A stretch of 32,000 bases of DNA, from positions 821,488-853,487 of the forward strand of contig NZ_CP054306.1 of NCBI RefSeq assembly GCF_018282115.1. The letters are read 5' to 3'. The stretch's first letter is position 1; every line of letters starts with the position of its first letter. The notes under the pieces are model-generated. The model was given only the letters and a program-made list of their open reading frames with translations, was not told the origin of the DNA and made no database searches. Source of the DNA: Synechocystis sp. PCC 7338. Lineage in GTDB: Bacteria; Cyanobacteriota; Cyanobacteriia; Cyanobacteriales; Microcystaceae. Below are positions 21,056 to 32,000 of this stretch, piece after piece. The translations under genes and the position numbers were made by a program.

Positions 21056-22231
21056 ATGAAACTCATCTGTCGTCAAAGTGATCTCAGCAGTGGTCTATCC
21101 CTAGTCAGTCGGGCTGTTTCCTCCCGGCCCACCCATCCTGTGTTGGGTAATGTGCTCCTCGAAGCCGATGCAGAGAAAAATTATCTACGCTTAACAGCCT
21201 TTGACCTCAGCCTCGGTATCCAGAGTAGTTTTACCGCCGACGTCCAACAGAGTGGCCGCATCACCCTGCCCGCTAAATTACTCAATGACATTGTTTCTCG
21301 CCTACCGGACGGAGATATTACCATGGCGATCGATCCCGATGAAGAGGCTGGGGATAGTTATTTAACCACTATCACCTCAGAGTCGGGGCGGTTCCAAATT
21401 CGAGGTCTAGATGCGGATGATTTTCCTGCCCTGCCCACCGTGGAAGGAGTCAAACCATTAATGTTACCGGTGGCAACCCTCAATGAAGGGTTACGGGGAG
21501 CCTTATTCGCCGCCAGTACTGATGAGACTAAACAGGTGCTGACGGGGGTGCATATCAAAGGTAGTAGCGATAGTTTGGAATTTGCGGCCACCGATGGTCA
21601 CCGGCTCGCTGTGGTGGAGGCTCCCACCCAAATTGAAAACGATGAAGGGGAAGCAGTGGTTACTGGCAGTGACCTGGCGGATTTTGCTGTTACCATTCCG
21701 GCCCGGGCCCTACGGGAATTAGAAAGAATGGTAGCCAGCCAGGGTAATAGTGATTTAGTTTCCCTGGTGGTGAACGATACCCAGGTAATTTTCGAGTTGG
21801 GGGATCAAAGGTTGACTAGCCGCAAATTGGAAGGGGCCTATCCCGCCTATGACCAGCTTATTCCCCGACAGTTTAGCCGCACTGTCACCATGGAACGAAA
21901 ACGGTTAATTACCTCCTTGGAAAGGGTTTCTGTGCTGGCGGATCAGAAAAATAACTTAGTCACCTTCACCCTCCAAAGCCCCGGTAACCAACTCCGGTTG
22001 GCGGTGGAAGCCCAGGACTTGGGCCATGGGGAAGAATCCATGGGGGCAGAAATTATTGGCGAAGGCGGACAAATTGCCTTCAATATCAAATATTTAATGG
22101 ACGGACTGAAGGCATTGCCTAGCAATGATATTCAAATGCAACTCAATGAAGGTAATCAGCCAGTGATTTTTACTCCCCTGGGGGGGCTGAAAATGACCTA
22201 TCTGGTTATGCCGGTGCGGCTAGTGGGCTAG
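21056..22231 (+). CDS. dnaN: DNA polymerase III beta sliding clamp
   Basis: 391-aa [13 protein letters not shown]..., [19 protein letters not shown] and the C-terminus YLVMPVRL match DnaN in length and pattern. Confidence 0.93.
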
Positions 22232-25396: not shown

Positions 25397-25639
25397 GTGA
25401 TTAGAAATTATCAGGATCGATCCAATCTAGCCCACCAGTTTAAGTAATTAGCAAAAGCTTGCCCCTAACGGTATTGGTAAACTAGGTAATCGGCAAAATA
25501 GTGGTAACCATGACAAAAAAGGATTGGTGTAGTGTGGCTAACGGTTCCTCCTTGCTCGGCAACCCCATAATCGGAGAATGTCTGTTTAAATGGTTACTGG
25601 CGAGTACCTAGATTAAGTTTGTGAAACAACCATAGTGGG

Positions 25640-26200
25640 ATGAATAGTAATTTTTCTCTCAAGTTTTTGGCCGTGCCGGCCTTTGCCCTGTCCATAGCGA
25701 CCATGGGAATTTTTGATTTGCCCAAGGGGTCGGCATTTGAGGCTTATTCCGGCCAGAATCCGCCATCTCCATTGGCTTCCTGTCCCCTGCCAGAAGAGGT
25801 TATTTCCCTAGGGCGATCGCCCCACGGAGAAGTTTTAATGGCTTCAGCGGCCAATGTGCCCATTCCAGCGGAGAACCCCAGTCAATCCCAGGAGTTCGAC
25901 TTCGATTTTAGCTATGCGGAAAGTGATGCGGCCGTTGCCCTATTTGGCTGTGATTGTCCGGCCTGTATCGGTGCCTTGCGACAACTACGGAGTCAGCCCT
26001 ACACTTCCCAAAGGTTAACCAGTAACCGCCCCACTGCCGATAAATCCTTTTTTAGCAAAAACCAGGCTAGGTTTAATGACCCAGTGGAAGGGCATTGCTG
26101 GGCCAATCTTCAAGAATTGGCAACGGAAGAGGATATCCAAGTGGTTCTGCAAACCCTGGAAAATGAAGAGTCTGTGGAAAAGGCAAAGGAAACTTTCTAA
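25640..26200 (+). CDS. Hypothetical secreted protein with CDCPAC motif
   Basis: 186-aa ORF with a signal peptide (FLAVPAFALSIATMG), a P/S-rich linker, and a FGCDCPACIGALRQLR motif. I recognise no family. Confidence 0.45.
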   Translation: MNSNFSLKFLAVPAFALSIATMGIFDLPKGSAFEAYSGQNPPSPLASCPLPEEVISLGRSPHGEVLMASAANVPIPAENPSQSQEFDFDFSYAESDAAVALFGCDCPACIGALRQLRSQPYTSQRLTSNRPTADKSFFSKNQARFNDPVEGHCWANLQELATEEDIQVVLQTLENEESVEKAKETF

Positions 26201-26209
26201 CCCTTGTGC

Positions 26210-27259
26210 CTACGCATCCCCTTTGCCAGTCATATTCTCTGCCCATAGAAGCAATTTCCCGCCACAGCCCCCGGCGGCGAGATGATTCCCTTGGGGTGAC
26301 CAGGCTAGGGTAGAGAATCCGGCGGCTACTCCTTCCAGAACTTGGGCGGCATGGGTAGCTTTTTTCCACAGGCAGACTAAACCATCTTCCGAAGCAGAGG
26401 CCAATAGGTTGGAACGGGGTTTAAAGGCGATCGCCGTTATTGTCCCATTGTGTAAGTCCAAGGGTTGAGCGACCCAATTATCATTTTCTCCCTGAACCCA
26501 GGCCACCATACTCTTACCACTGCTAGAAACCAACAGGGGTGAGCTTTCCGGAGCTTTCATAGACCAGGCCAAATGCCGTACCTTGCCCGGAAATCCTTGC
26601 ATTTGCCAGGGGTCAAGGTTTTCCCATTCCCAAACTAACAATGTTCGGTCATTATTACCGGAAGCCAAATACTGCCCATCGAGGGAGAAAGCGATCACCC
26701 CGCTAGCTCCACTGATATCCCACAGATGTGGATCATCATCCCAGGCTTTTGTCTTCCAAACTTTGAGGCTCTGGTTACCGGCTAGGACTAAAAAGTTGCC
26801 GCTGGGATGCCAGGCCATATCCAACACCGACGATTTTTCAAAGTTAATCGTTGCCACCACGGCCTTGAGGCCCCCATCCCATATTTGGGTGTATTTTCCC
26901 AGGGCAAAGGCCAGTTCTGGACGCTGGGGATGCCACCGCAGGCAATCGACCCAAGTCCGCTTATTTTCCAGTTCGGTTAGTAATACTGCCCCATCCTCCC
27001 CCACCTGCCAAATACGCACTGTGCCATCCTGGCCCCCCGTTGCCAAAAATTGACCATCGGCTGAAAAGGCGATTGCATCCAGCGAAAAACCCTGCTTTTC
27101 CCGCAAAGTTAGTAAATTTTTTTCCTGGAGCGTTAATAGCACTACCTCCCCCGCCGCTGAAGCCACCGCCAGAAAAGATCCATTTGGTGACCAGGCGATC
27201 GCTGTTACATAATCCGACAGAATGGTTTGCCAACGGAGGGTGAGCAGGGATTTAGCCAT
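26210..27259 (-). CDS. WD40-repeat (beta-propeller) protein
   Basis: 349-aa ORF with about 7 repeats ending in W-x motifs (GTVRIWQ, YTQIWD, SLKVWK, RTLLVWEW, KSMVAWV, GLVCLWK, GKLLLWA). Lies 69 nt downstream of the COG0523 gene on the same strand. Confidence 0.85.
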   Translation of the reverse strand: MAKSLLTLRWQTILSDYVTAIAWSPNGSFLAVASAAGEVVLLTLQEKNLLTLREKQGFSLDAIAFSADGQFLATGGQDGTVRIWQVGEDGAVLLTELENKRTWVDCLRWHPQRPELAFALGKYTQIWDGGLKAVVATINFEKSSVLDMAWHPSGNFLVLAGNQSLKVWKTKAWDDDPHLWDISGASGVIAFSLDGQYLASGNNDRTLLVWEWENLDPWQMQGFPGKVRHLAWSMKAPESSPLLVSSSGKSMVAWVQGENDNWVAQPLDLHNGTITAIAFKPRSNLLASASEDGLVCLWKKATHAAQVLEGVAAGFSTLAWSPQGNHLAAGGCGGKLLLWAENMTGKGDA

Positions 27260-27328
27260 GGAACAGAGGAAACTAGTTGGGAAAATTTAACGGCAATGGA
27301 ACGGTTTGATTAGCCAAAAAACCTGGGA

Positions 27329-28300
27329 CTATTGCAGGCATTCCCGAAATCCTTTCTCCAAACCCATGGCTTCCAGATTTCTGCCGATGAAGACCAACTC
27401 ATTTTTACGGGTTTCATTGTCCCGCCAAGGCCGATCCTGACGCCCTTCAAACAACATGTGGACCCCCTGGAAAACAAAGCGGCAGTCTTCCCCGGCGATG
27501 TTGAGGATACCTTTCATACGAAAAATATCGGGGCCATGGTCCCGTAGCAATATCCCCAGCCAGCGGTTCAGTTTAGCTCCGTCTATTTCCCCTGGTTCCA
27601 CTAAAGCAATGGAATGAACGGTTTCGTCATGTTCGTGGGCAGTTTCGTTGAGAAATTCGGGATCAATTTTTAAGGCATTACCCAAATCAAAGGCATTCAC
27701 CCCAAGGATAGAATCCATCTCCACTTGGGCATCACGGGTGCGATAAATTTTGGCGATCGCATTCATTGCCCGGATTTTTTCTTCTAGAGCCTGTAACTCA
27801 ACTTCCGTAACCAGGTCAGTTTTGTTAAGTAAGATGACGTCGGCAAAGGCAATTTGCTCCACAGCTTCTTCTGCTTCCCAGTGTTGGGCAATGTGGGCGG
27901 CGTCCACCACCGTCACCACTGCGTCTAAGCTGGTTTGGGTTTGTACCTCATCATCCACAAAAAAAGTCTGAATTACTGGGGCCGGGTCAGCTAGTCCGGT
28001 GGTTTCAATAACAAGGTGATCGAATTTGTCCCGACGCTTCATCAAGTTGCTAATGATGCGGATCAGATCACCCCGCACAGTACAGCAGATACAGCCGTTA
28101 TTCATCTCGAAGATTTCTTCGTCGGCATCAATGATCAGTTGATTATCTATGCCCACCTCACCAAATTCATTGACAATAACCGCCACTTTTTTACCATGCT
28201 CATGGGTGAGAATGCGATTTAGTAGAGTTGTTTTACCCGCCCCTAGATAGCCTGTAAGCACTGTGACTGGAACCGAACGCAGGGTATCAGCAATAACCAT
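27329..28300 (-). CDS. COG0523 / CobW-family G3E GTPase (putative metallochaperone)
   Basis: 323-aa ORF. P-loop GYLGAGKTTLLN, metal-binding CICCTVRGD (CxCC), Walker B ETTGLADP, NKTD specificity motif, and a CobW C-terminal domain. Confidence 0.9.
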   Translation of the reverse strand: MVIADTLRSVPVTVLTGYLGAGKTTLLNRILTHEHGKKVAVIVNEFGEVGIDNQLIIDADEEIFEMNNGCICCTVRGDLIRIISNLMKRRDKFDHLVIETTGLADPAPVIQTFFVDDEVQTQTSLDAVVTVVDAAHIAQHWEAEEAVEQIAFADVILLNKTDLVTEVELQALEEKIRAMNAIAKIYRTRDAQVEMDSILGVNAFDLGNALKIDPEFLNETAHEHDETVHSIALVEPGEIDGAKLNRWLGILLRDHGPDIFRMKGILNIAGEDCRFVFQGVHMLFEGRQDRPWRDNETRKNELVFIGRNLEAMGLEKGFRECLQ

Positions 28301-28372
28301 AATCAGATTTAGGTGATAGTCAACGACCTTGATCTTAATCCGGATTCACCCGTAAGATGTTCCGTGACTAAT

Positions 28373-28391
28373 TATAACGATAATCATTCCC
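28373..28391. promoter_or_regulatory. Fur-family (Fur/Zur-type) operator candidate in a divergent promoter
   Basis: TATAACGATAATCATTCCC matches the 19-bp Fur consensus GATAATGATAATCATTATC at 15/19 positions, including a 10-nt perfect core GATAATCATT. It lies 73-91 nt upstream of the COG0523 ATG and 8 nt upstream of the flavoprotein ATG. Confidence 0.45.
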
Positions 28392-28398
28392 ATTGCCC

Positions 28399-29619
28399 AT
28401 GGTGCCTGAGCCTAAAATCCTGCCGAAGTTTATTGATTTGGCGATCGCCGGGGCGGGGCCCCAAGCCCTGACCTTAGTGACCCATTTACTGCAAAAAAGA
28501 AAACGCCTGCGGGGAAGATTTGTGGTATTTGATCCCAGTGGTGACTGGCTCCAGCGTTGGCAATACCAATTTGCGGCGGCGGAAATTCCCCATCTACGCT
28601 CCCCGGCGGTGCATCATCCCGACCCCAATCCCCATGCCCTCCGTACCTTTGCAGAACAACGCCCCCAGGAATTATTCCCCCCCTACGATTTACCCGGTAC
28701 AGATCTATTTTGGGAATTTTGCCAAGAGGTTATCGAGCGGTGGCAATTGCGAAATTTGGTTTACCCTGCCCAGATCAGGGACATAGAACCTCTAGAACAT
28801 CAGAATCGACAGCGATTTCGTCTTTGGTTAGCGGATGGTCAATCAATACTGACCCGTAGGGTGGTGTTGGCGATCGCCGGGGGAAAGCCCCAAATTCCGG
28901 CCTGGGTGGATCAGATTTCGTCTTCTTATCCAGTCCATACCCTAGCTCATTCAGAAAAAATTGATCTGAGAAGCATGCATCTAACGGGGGAAAAAATTCT
29001 TATCATCGGTAGTGGCCTGACCAGCGGCCATTTGGCGATCGGAGCCATTAAACGGGGAGCCAAGGTACTGATGATGGCCCGGCGGCAATTTTACGAGAAG
29101 CTTTTTGATGCGGAACCGGGCTGGCTAGGCCCTAAATATTTGAAAGGCTTTTATGCTGAACCGAGTTGGGATAAACGCTGGCAGTTGATTCAATCCGCCC
29201 GTAATGGAGGTTCCCTCACCCCTGCGGTATTAACCCATCTACGTCGTCTGGAAAAAGAAGGGTCACTGACTTTTTATGAAAATTGCGAAGTTAGCCAAGC
29301 CCAATGGCAAGAAAATCATTGGCAGGTGAGTTGCAATTATCCCGGAGCTCATGATTGTCTGGCCCATTTAGCGATTGATCGTATTTGGCTCTGTACGGGG
29401 AGCACGATCGACGTTCGGCAATGGCCCCTGCTGAGGGAAATTCAAACCACCTATCCTGCGCCAATGATCCATGGCCTACCAGTGCTGGATTCTGCCCTAC
29501 GTTGGCCTGGTTGCAATTTACACATCATGGGAGGAGCCGCTTCTCTCCAACTCGGCCCTGTGGCCCGGAACTTGGCTGGGGCTAGGATGGCGGGCGATCG
29601 CCTCGTAGGTTGTTTATAA
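28399..29619 (+). CDS. FAD/NAD(P)-binding oxidoreductase (two dinucleotide-binding motifs)
   Basis: ORF 28393..29619 (TTG); the first ATG is at 28399. N-terminal DLAIAGAGPQALTL (GxGxxA) and a second ILIIGSGLTSGHLA (GxGxxG), plus a late WLCTGS motif. The architecture resembles N-hydroxylating/flavin monooxygenase-like enzymes, but the function is unknown. Confidence 0.7.
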   Translation: MVPEPKILPKFIDLAIAGAGPQALTLVTHLLQKRKRLRGRFVVFDPSGDWLQRWQYQFAAAEIPHLRSPAVHHPDPNPHALRTFAEQRPQELFPPYDLPGTDLFWEFCQEVIERWQLRNLVYPAQIRDIEPLEHQNRQRFRLWLADGQSILTRRVVLAIAGGKPQIPAWVDQISSSYPVHTLAHSEKIDLRSMHLTGEKILIIGSGLTSGHLAIGAIKRGAKVLMMARRQFYEKLFDAEPGWLGPKYLKGFYAEPSWDKRWQLIQSARNGGSLTPAVLTHLRRLEKEGSLTFYENCEVSQAQWQENHWQVSCNYPGAHDCLAHLAIDRIWLCTGSTIDVRQWPLLREIQTTYPAPMIHGLPVLDSALRWPGCNLHIMGGAASLQLGPVARNLAGARMAGDRLVGCL

Positions 29620-29659
29620 AAACCAAAGACCATTGGGAGTCCTTGAAAAAAAGACGATA

Positions 29660-31165
29660 TCAAACGTCATAGCCGAACAGATTAGGATTAACTTCCGTTA
29701 AATTAATATCCCCCAAGCCGTACTCGGCCCAGCGTTGGCTAACCTGCTCCGCCATGGCTTGATCCGATTCCAATACCTCTCCCCATTCGTGATCCGTTTC
29801 CGGGGGAATTTTTGTGGTGGCATCGATGCCCATGCGGCCTCCCAAACCAATCTTTTCACTGGCAAAATCAAGGGTATCAAAGGGGGTTTCCGGCAAAATG
29901 AACACGTCTCTCACCGGGTCAACCTTGGAGCTAATAGCCCAAACCACCTGGCGGGGATCCCGAATATTAATGTTCTTGTCCACCACAATGACAAATTTGG
30001 TGTAGGTAAACTGGGGCAGGGCACTCCAAAAGGCCAGGGCGGCCCGCTTAGCTTGGCCGGGATATGCTTTATCGATGGAGATAATGGCGGCTTTATAGCT
30101 CAACGCCTCCATCGGTAGAAAGAAGTCGGTGATTTCCGAAACCTGTTGCCGCAAAATTGGCGTATAAATCCGGTTCAAGGCGATCGCCATCATCGCTTCT
30201 TCCTTGGGGGGACGGCCGCTGAAGGTGGTTAAATAAACAGGATTTTTGCGGTGGGTTAGGCAATGGAACCGCACTAGGGGAGAATCCTCCACGCCGCCGT
30301 AATAGCCCATGTGATCACCAAAAGGCCCATCCGGTAACATTTCACCGGGGGTAATAGTGCCTTCCAACACAAATTCTGAGTCAGCGGGAACTTCCAAATC
30401 TACGGTTTTACATTTAGCTAATGCCACCCCGGAACCACCGTATAGCCCTGCAAATAACCATTCCGATAAATCCACGGGAATCGGTGTGGCCGCCGCCATA
30501 ATGATTAATGGATCTACCCCCAAGGCGATCGCCACTTCTAGTTTTTGGCCTCGTTCCATCGCTTTCCGTAAATGTCTGGCCCCTCCCCGCACCGATAGCC
30601 AATGGACGGTCATGGTGGTTTTGGATTGCAGTTGCAGACGGTAAACCCCCACATTGGGCGTGCCCGTTTCACAGTCCTTGGTGATCACTAAACCAAGGGT
30701 AATAATTTTGCCCGCATCACCGGGGTAGGGACGAATCAGGGGAATTTGATTTAAATCGAGATCGTCATTCCCAATGACCACTTCCTGGCAGGGGGGAAAG
30801 AAGTTGCGCCCCGGTTTAGCCTTGAGCACATCAAACAAGACTTTGCCAAAATCAATGGCCTGGGAAATTTTCTTAGGCGGCTTAGGCTGTTGCAACAGGG
30901 CTAGCTTTTTGCCCAAATCTTCCAATTCCAGGGGATGATCCATATTCATGGCCCAACAGATGCGCTCCACTGTGCCCATCAAATTCATCGCCACGGGGAA
31001 GGGGGAACCCTTGACATTTTCAAACAATAGCCCTGGACCACCAGCCTGTAGCATGCGGTTAGAGATTTCCGCCACTTCCAAATCGGGATCCACCTCAGCG
31101 GTAATGCGGCGCAACTGCCCCCGTGCTTCCAACAACTGGATGAATCCCCGTAAATCTCTGGCCAT
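29660..31165 (-). CDS. ubiD: UbiD-family (prenylated-FMN dependent) decarboxylase, 4-hydroxy-3-polyprenylbenzoate decarboxylase-like
   Basis: ORF 29660..31279. UbiD similarity starts at MARDLRGFIQLLEARGQLRRI (ATG at 31165). The 38 upstream codons (MIRHFKRKYKNNPRE...) read into low-GC DNA and are probably spurious. Confidence 0.9.
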   Translation of the reverse strand: MARDLRGFIQLLEARGQLRRITAEVDPDLEVAEISNRMLQAGGPGLLFENVKGSPFPVAMNLMGTVERICWAMNMDHPLELEDLGKKLALLQQPKPPKKISQAIDFGKVLFDVLKAKPGRNFFPPCQEVVIGNDDLDLNQIPLIRPYPGDAGKIITLGLVITKDCETGTPNVGVYRLQLQSKTTMTVHWLSVRGGARHLRKAMERGQKLEVAIALGVDPLIIMAAATPIPVDLSEWLFAGLYGGSGVALAKCKTVDLEVPADSEFVLEGTITPGEMLPDGPFGDHMGYYGGVEDSPLVRFHCLTHRKNPVYLTTFSGRPPKEEAMMAIALNRIYTPILRQQVSEITDFFLPMEALSYKAAIISIDKAYPGQAKRAALAFWSALPQFTYTKFVIVVDKNINIRDPRQVVWAISSKVDPVRDVFILPETPFDTLDFASEKIGLGGRMGIDATTKIPPETDHEWGEVLESDQAMAEQVSQRWAEYGLGDINLTEVNPNLFGYDV

Positions 31166-31210
31166 GGCAGTCAAAAAACTATACTTTCCACATTTAATAC
31201 TAACAGACTT

Positions 31211-31233
31211 TAGCTTCGAAAATAAGCTATAAT
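31211..31233 (+). promoter_or_regulatory. Perfect TATAAT -10 box overlapped by the inverted repeat TAGCTT-N7-AAGCTA
   Basis: TAGCTT (31211-31216) and AAGCTA (31224-31229) are exact reverse complements. TATAAT at 31228-31233 lies 35 nt upstream of the ATG at 31268. Confidence 0.35.
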
Positions 31234-31267
31234 CTTCTCGTGGATTATTTTTATATTTTCTTTTAAA

Positions 31268-32000
31268 ATGTCTTATCAATCAAATGATTTGGCTAAGTAC
31301 CTTTCAAATATTTTAATAAACATTATCAGAATTCATCCGGAATACCTGCTCGAAAAATACAGAAAGTATGATTGGGATAGCGAGAAAACATCCCAGATCA
31401 TTACAAAATACTTTTCTTATCATCTTAATAATTTAGTTGATAATGGAGAAAATAGTTTTTTTCTAAATATTAGCTTATCCATTTTTCGTAAATTCCTAGT
31501 GCCATTTAGTTTAAGTGATAAAGATATTGTGGACTTATGCATAAAAAACAAATCAATTGAATATAGCAAACACTTAGATGATAAGTCGACAACTTTAGGA
31601 TTTTCAGTACTTTTAATTGACATAGAAAATATTTATTTAGACGTTGTAGAAGAAGACTTAATTAAAAAACTTAGTAGGCATTCTCTAAAACACTACTTGG
31701 CTTTTGGTAACTGGAAAAAGTTGGGAAATAAAGATGAAGAGTTACACAAAAGAGGATATGAACTATTTCACGTGCCTTCAGGCAAAAATAATGCAGATCA
31801 AAGAATGACAAGTATAGGATCTTTTATTTGCCTAAATTATCCTGATATAAAAGAAATTTTTGTTTGTTCTTCGGATAAAGATCTTGAGACTTTATGCAAC
31901 TTTCTATCTCAGAAAGATATTGTCGTCTATCAAGTTTTTCGACAAACCAACAGTTTGTGTATTAAAAATTCTGAAACAAATGAAGTCTTGTCATATCCCA
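31268..32000 (+). CDS. NYN/LabA-like (PIN-fold) nuclease-domain protein with unknown N-terminal region; 3' end beyond the window
   Basis: Hand translation gives 244 codons from the ATG at 31268 with no stop up to the window edge, in ~29% GC DNA where stops should be frequent. It is absent from the ORF track because it lacks a stop. Motifs in NYN order: LLIDIENIYLD (D-x-E-N), SGKNNADQRM (GKN-x-AD), IFVCSSDKDLETLCNFLSQKDIVVYQV (S-x-D-x-D ... L ... V). Confidence 0.7.
   Translation, partial: MSYQSNDLAKYLSNILINIIRIHPEYLLEKYRKYDWDSEKTSQIITKYFSYHLNNLVDNGENSFFLNISLSIFRKFLVPFSLSDKDIVDLCIKNKSIEYSKHLDDKSTTLGFSVLLIDIENIYLDVVEEDLIKKLSRHSLKHYLAFGNWKKLGNKDEELHKRGYELFHVPSGKNNADQRMTSIGSFICLNYPDIKEIFVCSSDKDLETLCNFLSQKDIVVYQVFRQTNSLCIKNSETNEVLSYP

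Follow-up and report, generated by a model that had tools for sequence, protein, structure and literature searches.

The DNA analysed here (the window) is a stretch of 32,000 nucleotides (nt) from Synechocystis sp. PCC 7338 (NZ_CP054306.1, positions 821,488 to 853,487). Towards its right-hand end lies ubiD, also named plqD, on the minus strand, and diverging from it on the plus strand is an AT-rich gene that runs to the last position of the window, and this second gene is the subject of the present analysis. The visible part of it, at 31268-32000, is quite probably the 5' 57% of a resident chromosomal gene for a MARF1-like RNase with a three-helix N-terminal domain (N-domain), an NYN domain, and two LOTUS domains (also called OST-HTH). 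The feature is a member of a known bacterial kind, the MARF1-like NYN-LOTUS proteins, and is already annotated in generic terms. It is recorded as notable for its recurrent neighbourhood with ubiD and with the gene for 4-hydroxyphenylpyruvate dioxygenase (HPPD), and for a gene-specific, AT-rich compositional equilibrium. The features of the locus are as follows, with coordinates in the window, strand, identity, and supporting evidence.

29660-31165, minus strand: ubiD/plqD, UbiD-family 4-hydroxy-3-prenylbenzoate decarboxylase of 501 amino acids (aa), the divergent partner (TIGR00148, 608 bits against a cutoff of 245)
31166-31267, no strand: divergent intergenic spacer of 102 bp between ubiD and the NYN-LOTUS gene (alignment to relatives)
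31228-31233, plus strand: TATAAT, candidate -10 element of the NYN-LOTUS gene, 35 nt 5' of the ATG (position confirmed)
31268-32000, plus strand: NYN-LOTUS (MARF1-like) gene, first 244 of about 431 codons, cut by the end of the window (open frame and orthologs of 431 aa)
31268-31546, plus strand: N-terminal helical domain, aa 1-93, found in the 'type A' branch only (AlphaFold2 and alignment)
31601-32000, plus strand: NYN (PIN-like) nuclease domain, aa 112-244 (PF01936)
31619-31630, plus strand: DIEN motif, aa 118-121 (D118 in 266 of 266 sequences, E120 in 263, N121 in 266)
31781-31798, plus strand: GKNNAD motif, with D177 at the N-terminus of a helix (D177 in 264 of 267 sequences)
31868-31882, plus strand: SSDKD motif with S201 and D203, at the end of a beta-strand (S201 in 265 of 266 sequences, D203 in 266 of 266)

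The plus-strand frame from the ATG at 31268 is open for 244 codons, up to the end of the window at 32000, and the remaining five frames carry 15-36 stops each. This bears out a preliminary description of the DNA, made from the letters of the window, which had pointed to an open reading frame at this position that was missing from its supplied track. Using UbiD as an anchor, 80 related loci were fetched. Complete orthologs of 431 aa are present in the same divergent position beside ubiD in Synechocystis salina LEGE 00031 (L002:8603-9898), where the protein is 89% identical to that of the window over the visible 244 residues, and in the complete chromosome of Synechocystis sp. CACIAM 05 (L173:8001-9296). 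Near-identical orthologs, within the same 90% cluster, occur in strains LEGE 06083 and FACHB-383, and in four Synechocystis genomes the orthologs carry the NCBI label 'NYN domain-containing protein'. The gene is missing beside ubiD in two Synechocystis metagenome-assembled genomes (L003 and L009), in which the entire upstream synteny differs. Between the window and S. salina the ratio of nonsynonymous to synonymous divergence (dN/dS) of the NYN gene is 0.127, with a dS of 0.44 that is comparable to the 0.66 of ubiD, the UbiD proteins being 97% identical. On these comparisons the NYN-LOTUS open reading frame is a real gene under purifying selection.

A word-indexed protein search with the 244-aa fragment returned no match, and the family was found by profile and exhaustive searches. 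An exhaustive HMMER scan of 1.84 billion representatives gave 203 relatives and a profile search gave at least 667 clusters at 90% identity, every named one of them cyanobacterial. An exact-DNA search of species-representative genomes with the end of the window was likewise negative, and orthologous loci served for the DNA beyond it. No NCBIfam model matches the protein, and the phage collection gave no match. A single match was found in the plasmid collection, on the 190 kb plasmid pBOCT2 of Brasilonema octagenarum (L001 7929-8609). This copy is unannotated and apparently truncated, covers the NYN core only at 37% identity, and lies approximately 630 bp upstream of an IS630 transposase; it was judged to be a stray fragment and not the origin of the family.

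In the alignment the family has a variable N-terminus, a strongly conserved NYN core, and two, sometimes three, C-terminal modules. The Pfam model NYN (PF01936) matches aa 115-224 of the window protein with 33.5 bits (E 7.4e-8) against a gathering cutoff of 24.2, and is above its cutoff in all 13 of the aligned members, so that the assignment to NYN that had been made by eye holds, as does the order of its three motif blocks, DIEN (aa 118-121), GKNNAD (172-177), and SSDKD (201-205). An AlphaFold2 model of the visible 244 aa has a pLDDT of 82, and approximately 85-95 in the NYN core. The NYN region is an alpha/beta/alpha sandwich with a parallel sheet, and in the PDB Foldseek matched the model best to the NYN domains of MARF1 from human and mouse (6fdl, 5yaa; E 1.6e-4, probability 1.0, TM 0.66 over 130 columns). 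The family profile, run against the sequences of the PDB, returned noise only. Across 267 sequences D118, N121, D156, D177, S201, and D203 are invariant or nearly so. Their MARF1 equivalents, mapped by position in the secondary structure and not by residue-level superposition, are D178 and N181 for D118 and N121, which are spaced alike, D246 for D177, and S270 and D272 for S201 and D203. At residue 148, carried by the end of strand beta-2, there is an N in 257 of the 267 sequences and a D in 8, and D205 of the SSDKD motif is variable, being Ala, Val, or Leu in most members.

The N-terminus takes one of two forms. One is the helical domain of the window protein, and the other, that of a sister branch, is a zinc ribbon of the CxxC...CxxC type with weak Pfam scores that are InsA-like or TFIIB-like. 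The first 115 or so residues of the window protein had been described as resembling nothing familiar, which still stands, and to this structure prediction adds a confidently modelled fold: aa 1-82 form a three-helix bundle (helices 2-22, 39-58, and 62-76; pLDDT 87, pTM 0.76), with a fourth helix (84-93) appearing in the 244-aa model. Residues P24, Y31, W36, and F80 of this domain are invariant in 45 sequences, and a Foldseek comparison with the PDB gave no significant match, the best having an E of 0.92. Tandem pairs of family genes are frequent (L084 6001-9087; L021 5494-10012; L042 6054-9074), with one copy carrying the helical N-domain and the other the zinc ribbon. In L021 and L042 it is the zinc-ribbon copy that adjoins ubiD.

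An hhalign comparison shows the two C-terminal modules to be homologous (probability 93.5%, E 2.3e-7). The Pfam model OST-HTH/LOTUS (PF12872) is above its cutoff in the family members P0005 (31.9 bits), P0099 (30.7), P0115 (26.6), and P0024 (25.1), and for P0099 and P0024 the part that matches lines up with residues 354-425 of the protein from S. salina.

The arrangement of an NYN domain followed by tandem minimal LOTUS domains is shared with MARF1, in which RNase activity requires both the NYN aspartates and the LOTUS domains (PMC6217404). LOTUS domains, including the bacterial TP0894-LOTUS, bind G-rich and G4 RNA (PMC7498356), and the bacterial combination of NYN (LK-nuclease/DUF88) with OST-HTH was described in 2010 (PMC2848206). 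By analogy, the NYN-LOTUS protein is most likely a LOTUS-guided, metal-dependent RNase. Its LOTUS domains would capture RNA that is single-stranded or G-rich and hand it to an NYN active site made up of D118, N121, D177, S201, and D203, with the invariant D156 nearby, where the RNA would be cleaved in a reaction dependent on Mg2+ or Mn2+; this would be the same division of labour as in MARF1, RNA binding by LOTUS feeding the NYN RNase. The N-domain probably mediates an interaction with a partner or of the protein with itself. The family differs from MARF1 in several respects. Identity in the NYN domain is only 15-18%. There are two LOTUS domains and no RRM, against eight LOTUS domains in the mammalian protein. 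The three-helix N-domain, or the zinc ribbon of the sister branch, is specific to the family, the equivalent of D215 is an Asn, the named members are all cyanobacterial, and the gene neighbourhood with ubiD and HPPD is a fixed one.

Several points weigh against identifying the gene as one for an active MARF1-like RNase with LOTUS domains. The window ends at codon 244, so that the C-terminal half is predicted from orthologs, which show 89% identity to the part that is visible. Pfam misses OST-HTH in the S. salina protein and in P0121, and the assignment of LOTUS domains in the Synechocystis clade comes through the family alignment and hhalign and not through a direct Pfam match. The associations with ubiD and HPPD, given below, are evidence of gene order only. 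Finally, N148 stands in place of the essential D215 of MARF1, which would mean that the NYN domain could be a weak or inactive nuclease acting as an RNA binder.

This last point opens an alternative in which the protein is catalytically dead and serves as an RNA-binding scaffold, tethering or organising particular mRNAs or ribosome-associated complexes without cleaving RNA. The replacement of the MARF1 Asp is found in 96% of members, and the second Asp of the SxDxD motif (D205) is not conserved in the family. Two other, uncharacterised LabA/NYN proteins of Synechocystis sp. PCC 6803, Slr1870 (with an OST-HTH domain as well) and Slr0650, co-immunoprecipitate with the RNA-binding protein Rbp3 and ribosomes (PMC12232666), which is in keeping with a scaffold. 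However, D118, D156, D177, and D203 hardly vary across the 267 sequences, a constancy difficult to account for if they served neither catalysis nor metal binding, and many PIN-like nucleases function with three acidic residues and an Asn or Ser. A dead scaffold is for these reasons considered unlikely, and catalysis by the NYN domain is, by analogy, likely though not certain. Among described proteins, Slr1870, Slr0650, and Slr0755 of strain PCC 6803 (PMC12232666) resemble the window protein as cyanobacterial LabA/NYN proteins, in one case with OST-HTH, and the co-immunoprecipitation of Slr1870 and Slr0650 is consistent with a role in mRNA metabolism. No link to ubiD and no AT-richness is reported for them; they were compared by description only, and the window gene may be one of the three or a fourth paralog.

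The grouping of these Synechocystis NYN proteins with the LabA superfamily (PMC12232666) also bears on a different function, that of a regulator of clock output, acting in circadian feedback on KaiC and RpaA as do LabA and LalA of Synechococcus elongatus PCC 7942, instead of controlling specific mRNAs. These are founding members of the same Pfam family (PF01936, historically DUF88/LabA) and come from the same phylum. They act in circadian output, however, and no LOTUS domain is mentioned for them in PMC12232666; the N-domain, the two LOTUS domains, and the ubiD/HPPD neighbourhood of the present family have no counterpart in LabA, this separation being by description and not by sequence. There are also no kai or rpaA genes nearby. 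A LabA-like role in the clock is therefore thought very unlikely, and the RNase remains the preferred identity of the gene.

The composition of the DNA changes abruptly at the start of ubiD. The G+C content (GC) is 0.499 over positions 1-31165 and 0.287 over 31166-32000, a drop of 21 points, and the maximum-likelihood change point is at 31173, in agreement with the break at about 31166 given by the preliminary description, whose hand counts (29/100 G+C at 31621-31720 and 55/100 at 21061-21160) are exact. Outside the tract, the lowest GC of any 835-bp window in the whole 32,000-nt sequence is 0.378. At third codon positions (GC3) the open reading frame has 0.254, against 0.50-0.61 in nine neighbouring genes, which makes its codon usage atypical. 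The HIP1 octamer (GCGATCGC) is present in 28 copies in the window, against 0.19 expected by chance. The final copy is at 30525-30532, and it is true, as had been noted, that there are none in 31166-32000. Only 0.75 copies would be expected in 835 bp, with a probability of 0.47 of finding none, and so the absence of HIP1 from the tract is by itself uninformative. The abundance of HIP1 marks the source of the window as a HIP1-rich cyanobacterium, and the order FTR1-dnaN-trpA is that of Synechocystis sp. CACIAM 05.

These features had been taken to mark the edge of a horizontally acquired low-GC island, with the visible gene as the first of an accessory, defence, or toxin module whose remainder would lie beyond the window. 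In its favour are the sharp drop in GC at the ubiD start, the tract without HIP1 (not significant, as given above), the occurrence of NYN/PIN nucleases in defence and toxin systems, and the truncated copy of the family beside the IS630 transposase on the Brasilonema plasmid. The orthologous loci, through which the neighbours 3' of the gene can be read, do not agree with it. In S. salina (L002), CACIAM 05 (L173), and the more distant relative L092 the trough of low GC spans exactly one gene, and in the first two it ends at the stop codon. In S. salina the single 431-aa gene is followed by a CbiG/CbiH fusion, a DUF4335 protein, and DAHP synthase, all housekeeping genes of normal GC. The order in CACIAM 05 is FTR1-dnaN-trpA-...-aminotransferase-...-UbiD <> NYN > CbiG/CbiH > DUF4335, and then DAHP synthase, DUF3464, and ribosomal protein S15 (rpsO), with a GC of 0.286 in the NYN gene against 0.502 in the rest of the locus. 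In these genomes neither a module continuing beyond the gene nor a strain-specific segment right of ubiD is found, and the same site is filled by the same gene in S. salina LEGE 00031 and CACIAM 05.

Further hallmarks of an island are also lacking. PADLOC-DB was searched for defence models with both the fragment in the window and the complete ortholog, and no family matched at E <= 1. A search for tRNA genes was negative, and the trough is not consistently flanked by shared repeats. Instead of the variable, multi-gene surroundings of a defence island, the two Synechocystis genomes have identical neighbours, and the gene holds this position in several species of Synechocystis as well as in distant orders. 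The synonymous divergence of the NYN gene, comparable to that of ubiD, and the balance of its substitutions, described next, likewise argue against import. What the tract has in common with classical low-GC genomic islands is the abrupt trough and the atypical codon usage (GC3 0.25 against 0.50-0.61). It differs from them in being one gene wide, in holding a position that is conserved across species and orders, and in containing a gene that is under purifying selection, at equilibrium, and without mobility hallmarks. The one-gene trough, the housekeeping neighbours, and the lack of island features together indicate one resident gene rather than the margin of an island, and the acquired-module explanation is regarded as highly improbable.

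Substitutions were polarised among the window, S. salina, and CACIAM 05. In the NYN gene, which has 519 AT sites and 213 GC sites, there are 49 changes from GC to AT and 51 from AT to GC, with no excess of the latter. Under a genome-like pressure the share of AT-to-GC changes would be expected to be 0.71, which is rejected at p = 3.5e-5 over all sites. At third positions the counts are 22 GC-to-AT and 32 AT-to-GC, which differ from the genome-like expectation (p = 0.012) and not from 0.5. Such balanced directions mean that the gene is at compositional equilibrium, is not ameliorating, and is not a recent import.

Nor is the low GC peculiar to the window. The NYN gene is AT-richer than its surroundings in 21 of 21 genome copies and in 38 of 39 metagenomic clusters, the latter dereplicated from 80 loci of a metagenome scan, with a mean deficit of 5.7 GC points (sign test p ~1e-10, uncorrected for phylogenetic relatedness). 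The clade of Synechocystis and P0121 is extreme, with a GC of 0.28-0.29 in the NYN gene against 0.44-0.52 in its surroundings. The deficit reaches synonymous sites, as GC3 of the NYN gene is 0.22-0.25 against the 0.50-0.61 of neighbouring genes in the window, and the trough of L092 is also free of HIP1. Genes of this family have kept a low GC over a long time, and in Synechocystis that composition is at equilibrium. A trough in GC alone is consequently unsafe evidence of an island: here a trough of 21 points without HIP1 is an old resident gene at equilibrium.

As to the cause of the AT-richness, it is plausible that it holds down the expression of an RNase that could be harmful, by way of rare codons or of an AU-rich mRNA that is unstable. 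Avoidance by the gene of G-rich RNA in its own transcript was also considered and set aside; the sense strand is not depleted in G (G 0.152, C 0.139), and this strand skew gives it no support.

The place of the gene beside ubiD is shared well beyond Synechocystis. In the ubiD-anchored sample, a family member is present within 7 kb in 10 of 69 informative loci, always on the opposite strand to ubiD and in 8 cases directly adjacent. The taxa with this linkage include Prochloraceae, Oscillatoriaceae, Lyngbya, Phormidium, Floridaenema, and Nodularia, and the other content upstream of ubiD is highly variable. The gene is divergent from and adjacent to ubiD in Allocoleopsis PCC 7113, in a JGI contig, and in P0121, which is the nearest outgroup at 58% identity. 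From the opposite anchor, that of the NYN gene in the metagenomic clusters, a divergent ubiD is found within 2.2 kb in 18 of 37 informative clusters. An HPPD gene lies within 3 kb downstream on the same strand in 17 of 32, usually with a short-chain dehydrogenase (SDR) between, and these neighbours are bona fide 4-hydroxyphenylpyruvate dioxygenases (TIGR01263, 318-346 bits against a cutoff of 277). Where both sides are informative, ubiD, HPPD, or both are present in 26 of 31 clusters (both in 4 of 31). Within the sample anchored on ubiD, HPPD occurs close to ubiD only where the NYN gene sits between the two.

Copies linked to ubiD are spread over nearly all clades of a neighbour-joining tree built on the NYN core. 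This spread, together with the recurrence from both anchors, would suggest that the arrangement ubiD <> NYN-LOTUS (> SDR > HPPD) is ancestral to the family. In many Nostocales exbB adjoins ubiD, in the slot where Allocoleopsis has the NYN gene followed by exbB, a pattern that fits loss of an ancestral NYN gene. The pairing of ubiD with the NYN-LOTUS gene thus looks ancestral, and is recurrent in many cyanobacterial orders without being universal. Universal synteny beside ubiD, as a core gene, had been named as the alternative to an island, and of this the recurrence across distant cyanobacteria stands and the universality does not. Separately, exbB and exbD lie directly 3' of the NYN-LOTUS gene in several lineages (L083 8050-9646; L091 7565-9155; L090 7869-9199; L149 and L150).

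The UbiD/PlqD enzyme decarboxylates the precursor of the plastoquinone head group, and Sll0936 is the decarboxylase of this pathway in strain PCC 6803 (PMC12998194). Gene order alone suggests a functional link of the NYN-LOTUS gene to prenylquinone metabolism. HPPD, the other recurrent neighbour, produces homogentisate, the precursor of the tocopherol head group. It may be asked whether the protein is a dedicated post-transcriptional regulator of the supply of aromatic head groups for prenyl lipids, acting on the mRNAs of ubiD/plqD (for plastoquinone) and HPPD (for homogentisate and tocopherol), its neighbours from early in the evolution of cyanobacteria, with its own extreme AT-richness kept by selection. 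This more specific proposal is considered doubtful. Under it, the AT-richness may keep a potentially toxic RNase poorly translated or its mRNA short-lived, or may keep the transcript outside the substrate range of its own product, and, if the proposal is true, a GC trough of a single gene could be the sign of a composition under selection and not of foreign DNA. The repeated placement between ubiD/plqD and HPPD does suggest control at the RNA level of the enzymes that make plastoquinone and tocopherol precursors, pathways of which the regulation in cyanobacteria is, to our knowledge, poorly understood. A literature search found no paper on the linkage of the family to ubiD and HPPD or on its composition. 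The gene offers a handle on the essentially unstudied bacterial MARF1-like proteins. Its domain layout is clear, its active site is conserved, and several genomes of Synechocystis, the genus of the standard genetic model PCC 6803, carry orthologs.

The 102-bp spacer between the two genes is identical to that of S. salina at 99 of 102 positions and to that of CACIAM 05 at 89 of 102. The first of these values (97%) had suggested extreme conservation, which was toned down in view of the 87% identity to CACIAM 05. It is mainly the 68 nt or so nearest to ubiD that are conserved, up to and including the TATAAT at 31228, the position of which is as had been reported. In the relatives L092 and L093, with a protein 58% identical, the blocks AAAAAACTAT, CTAACA, and AAGCTATAAT are shared with the spacer of the window, and the TATAAT is invariant within AAGCTATAAT in an alignment of four spacer sequences. 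A promoter consensus scan passed over this TATAAT, which is without a match to a -35 element, and in the promoter and terminator scan sites were no commoner than in shuffled sequence. The conservation of AAGCTATAAT and the two further blocks in the relatives supports the TATAAT as a putative promoter element, and it is a candidate for the -10 element of the NYN-LOTUS gene. No match to Rfam was found over 30800-32000.

A locus tag was considered for the gene in strain PCC 6803, slr0937 being the number after sll0936. In the literature slr0937 appears as SMC-like or as an unknown protein, with a Gly at residue 292 (G292). The ortholog of S. salina has a Tyr there (Y292) and does not match TIGR02168, and so no tag was assigned.

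To the left of ubiD, a segment of approximately 4.3 kb (25397-29663) varies between strains. It contains a 186-aa open reading frame, a WD40-repeat protein, a CobW-family GTPase, and a gene like FAD/NAD-binding oxygenases, and it is missing in CACIAM 05, which has a 99-aa SH3_3 gene in its place. At least the ubiD-proximal part is kept in S. salina, and the GC and HIP1 density of the segment are typical of the host. In Synechocystis sp. MAG 27796 (L003 1-1250), where UbiD is 95% identical and the NYN gene is absent, an FtsH-like gene is upstream of ubiD, and beyond it there is a different low-GC stretch (0.33-0.38) with an unidentified open reading frame. In ubiD the three Synechocystis lineages are approximately equidistant, at 88.6-89.4% nucleotide identity. 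For the NYN gene, the 94% identity between S. salina and CACIAM 05 is well above the 88-89% that either shows to the window. These unequal distances in the two genes hint at recombination between lineages across the locus.

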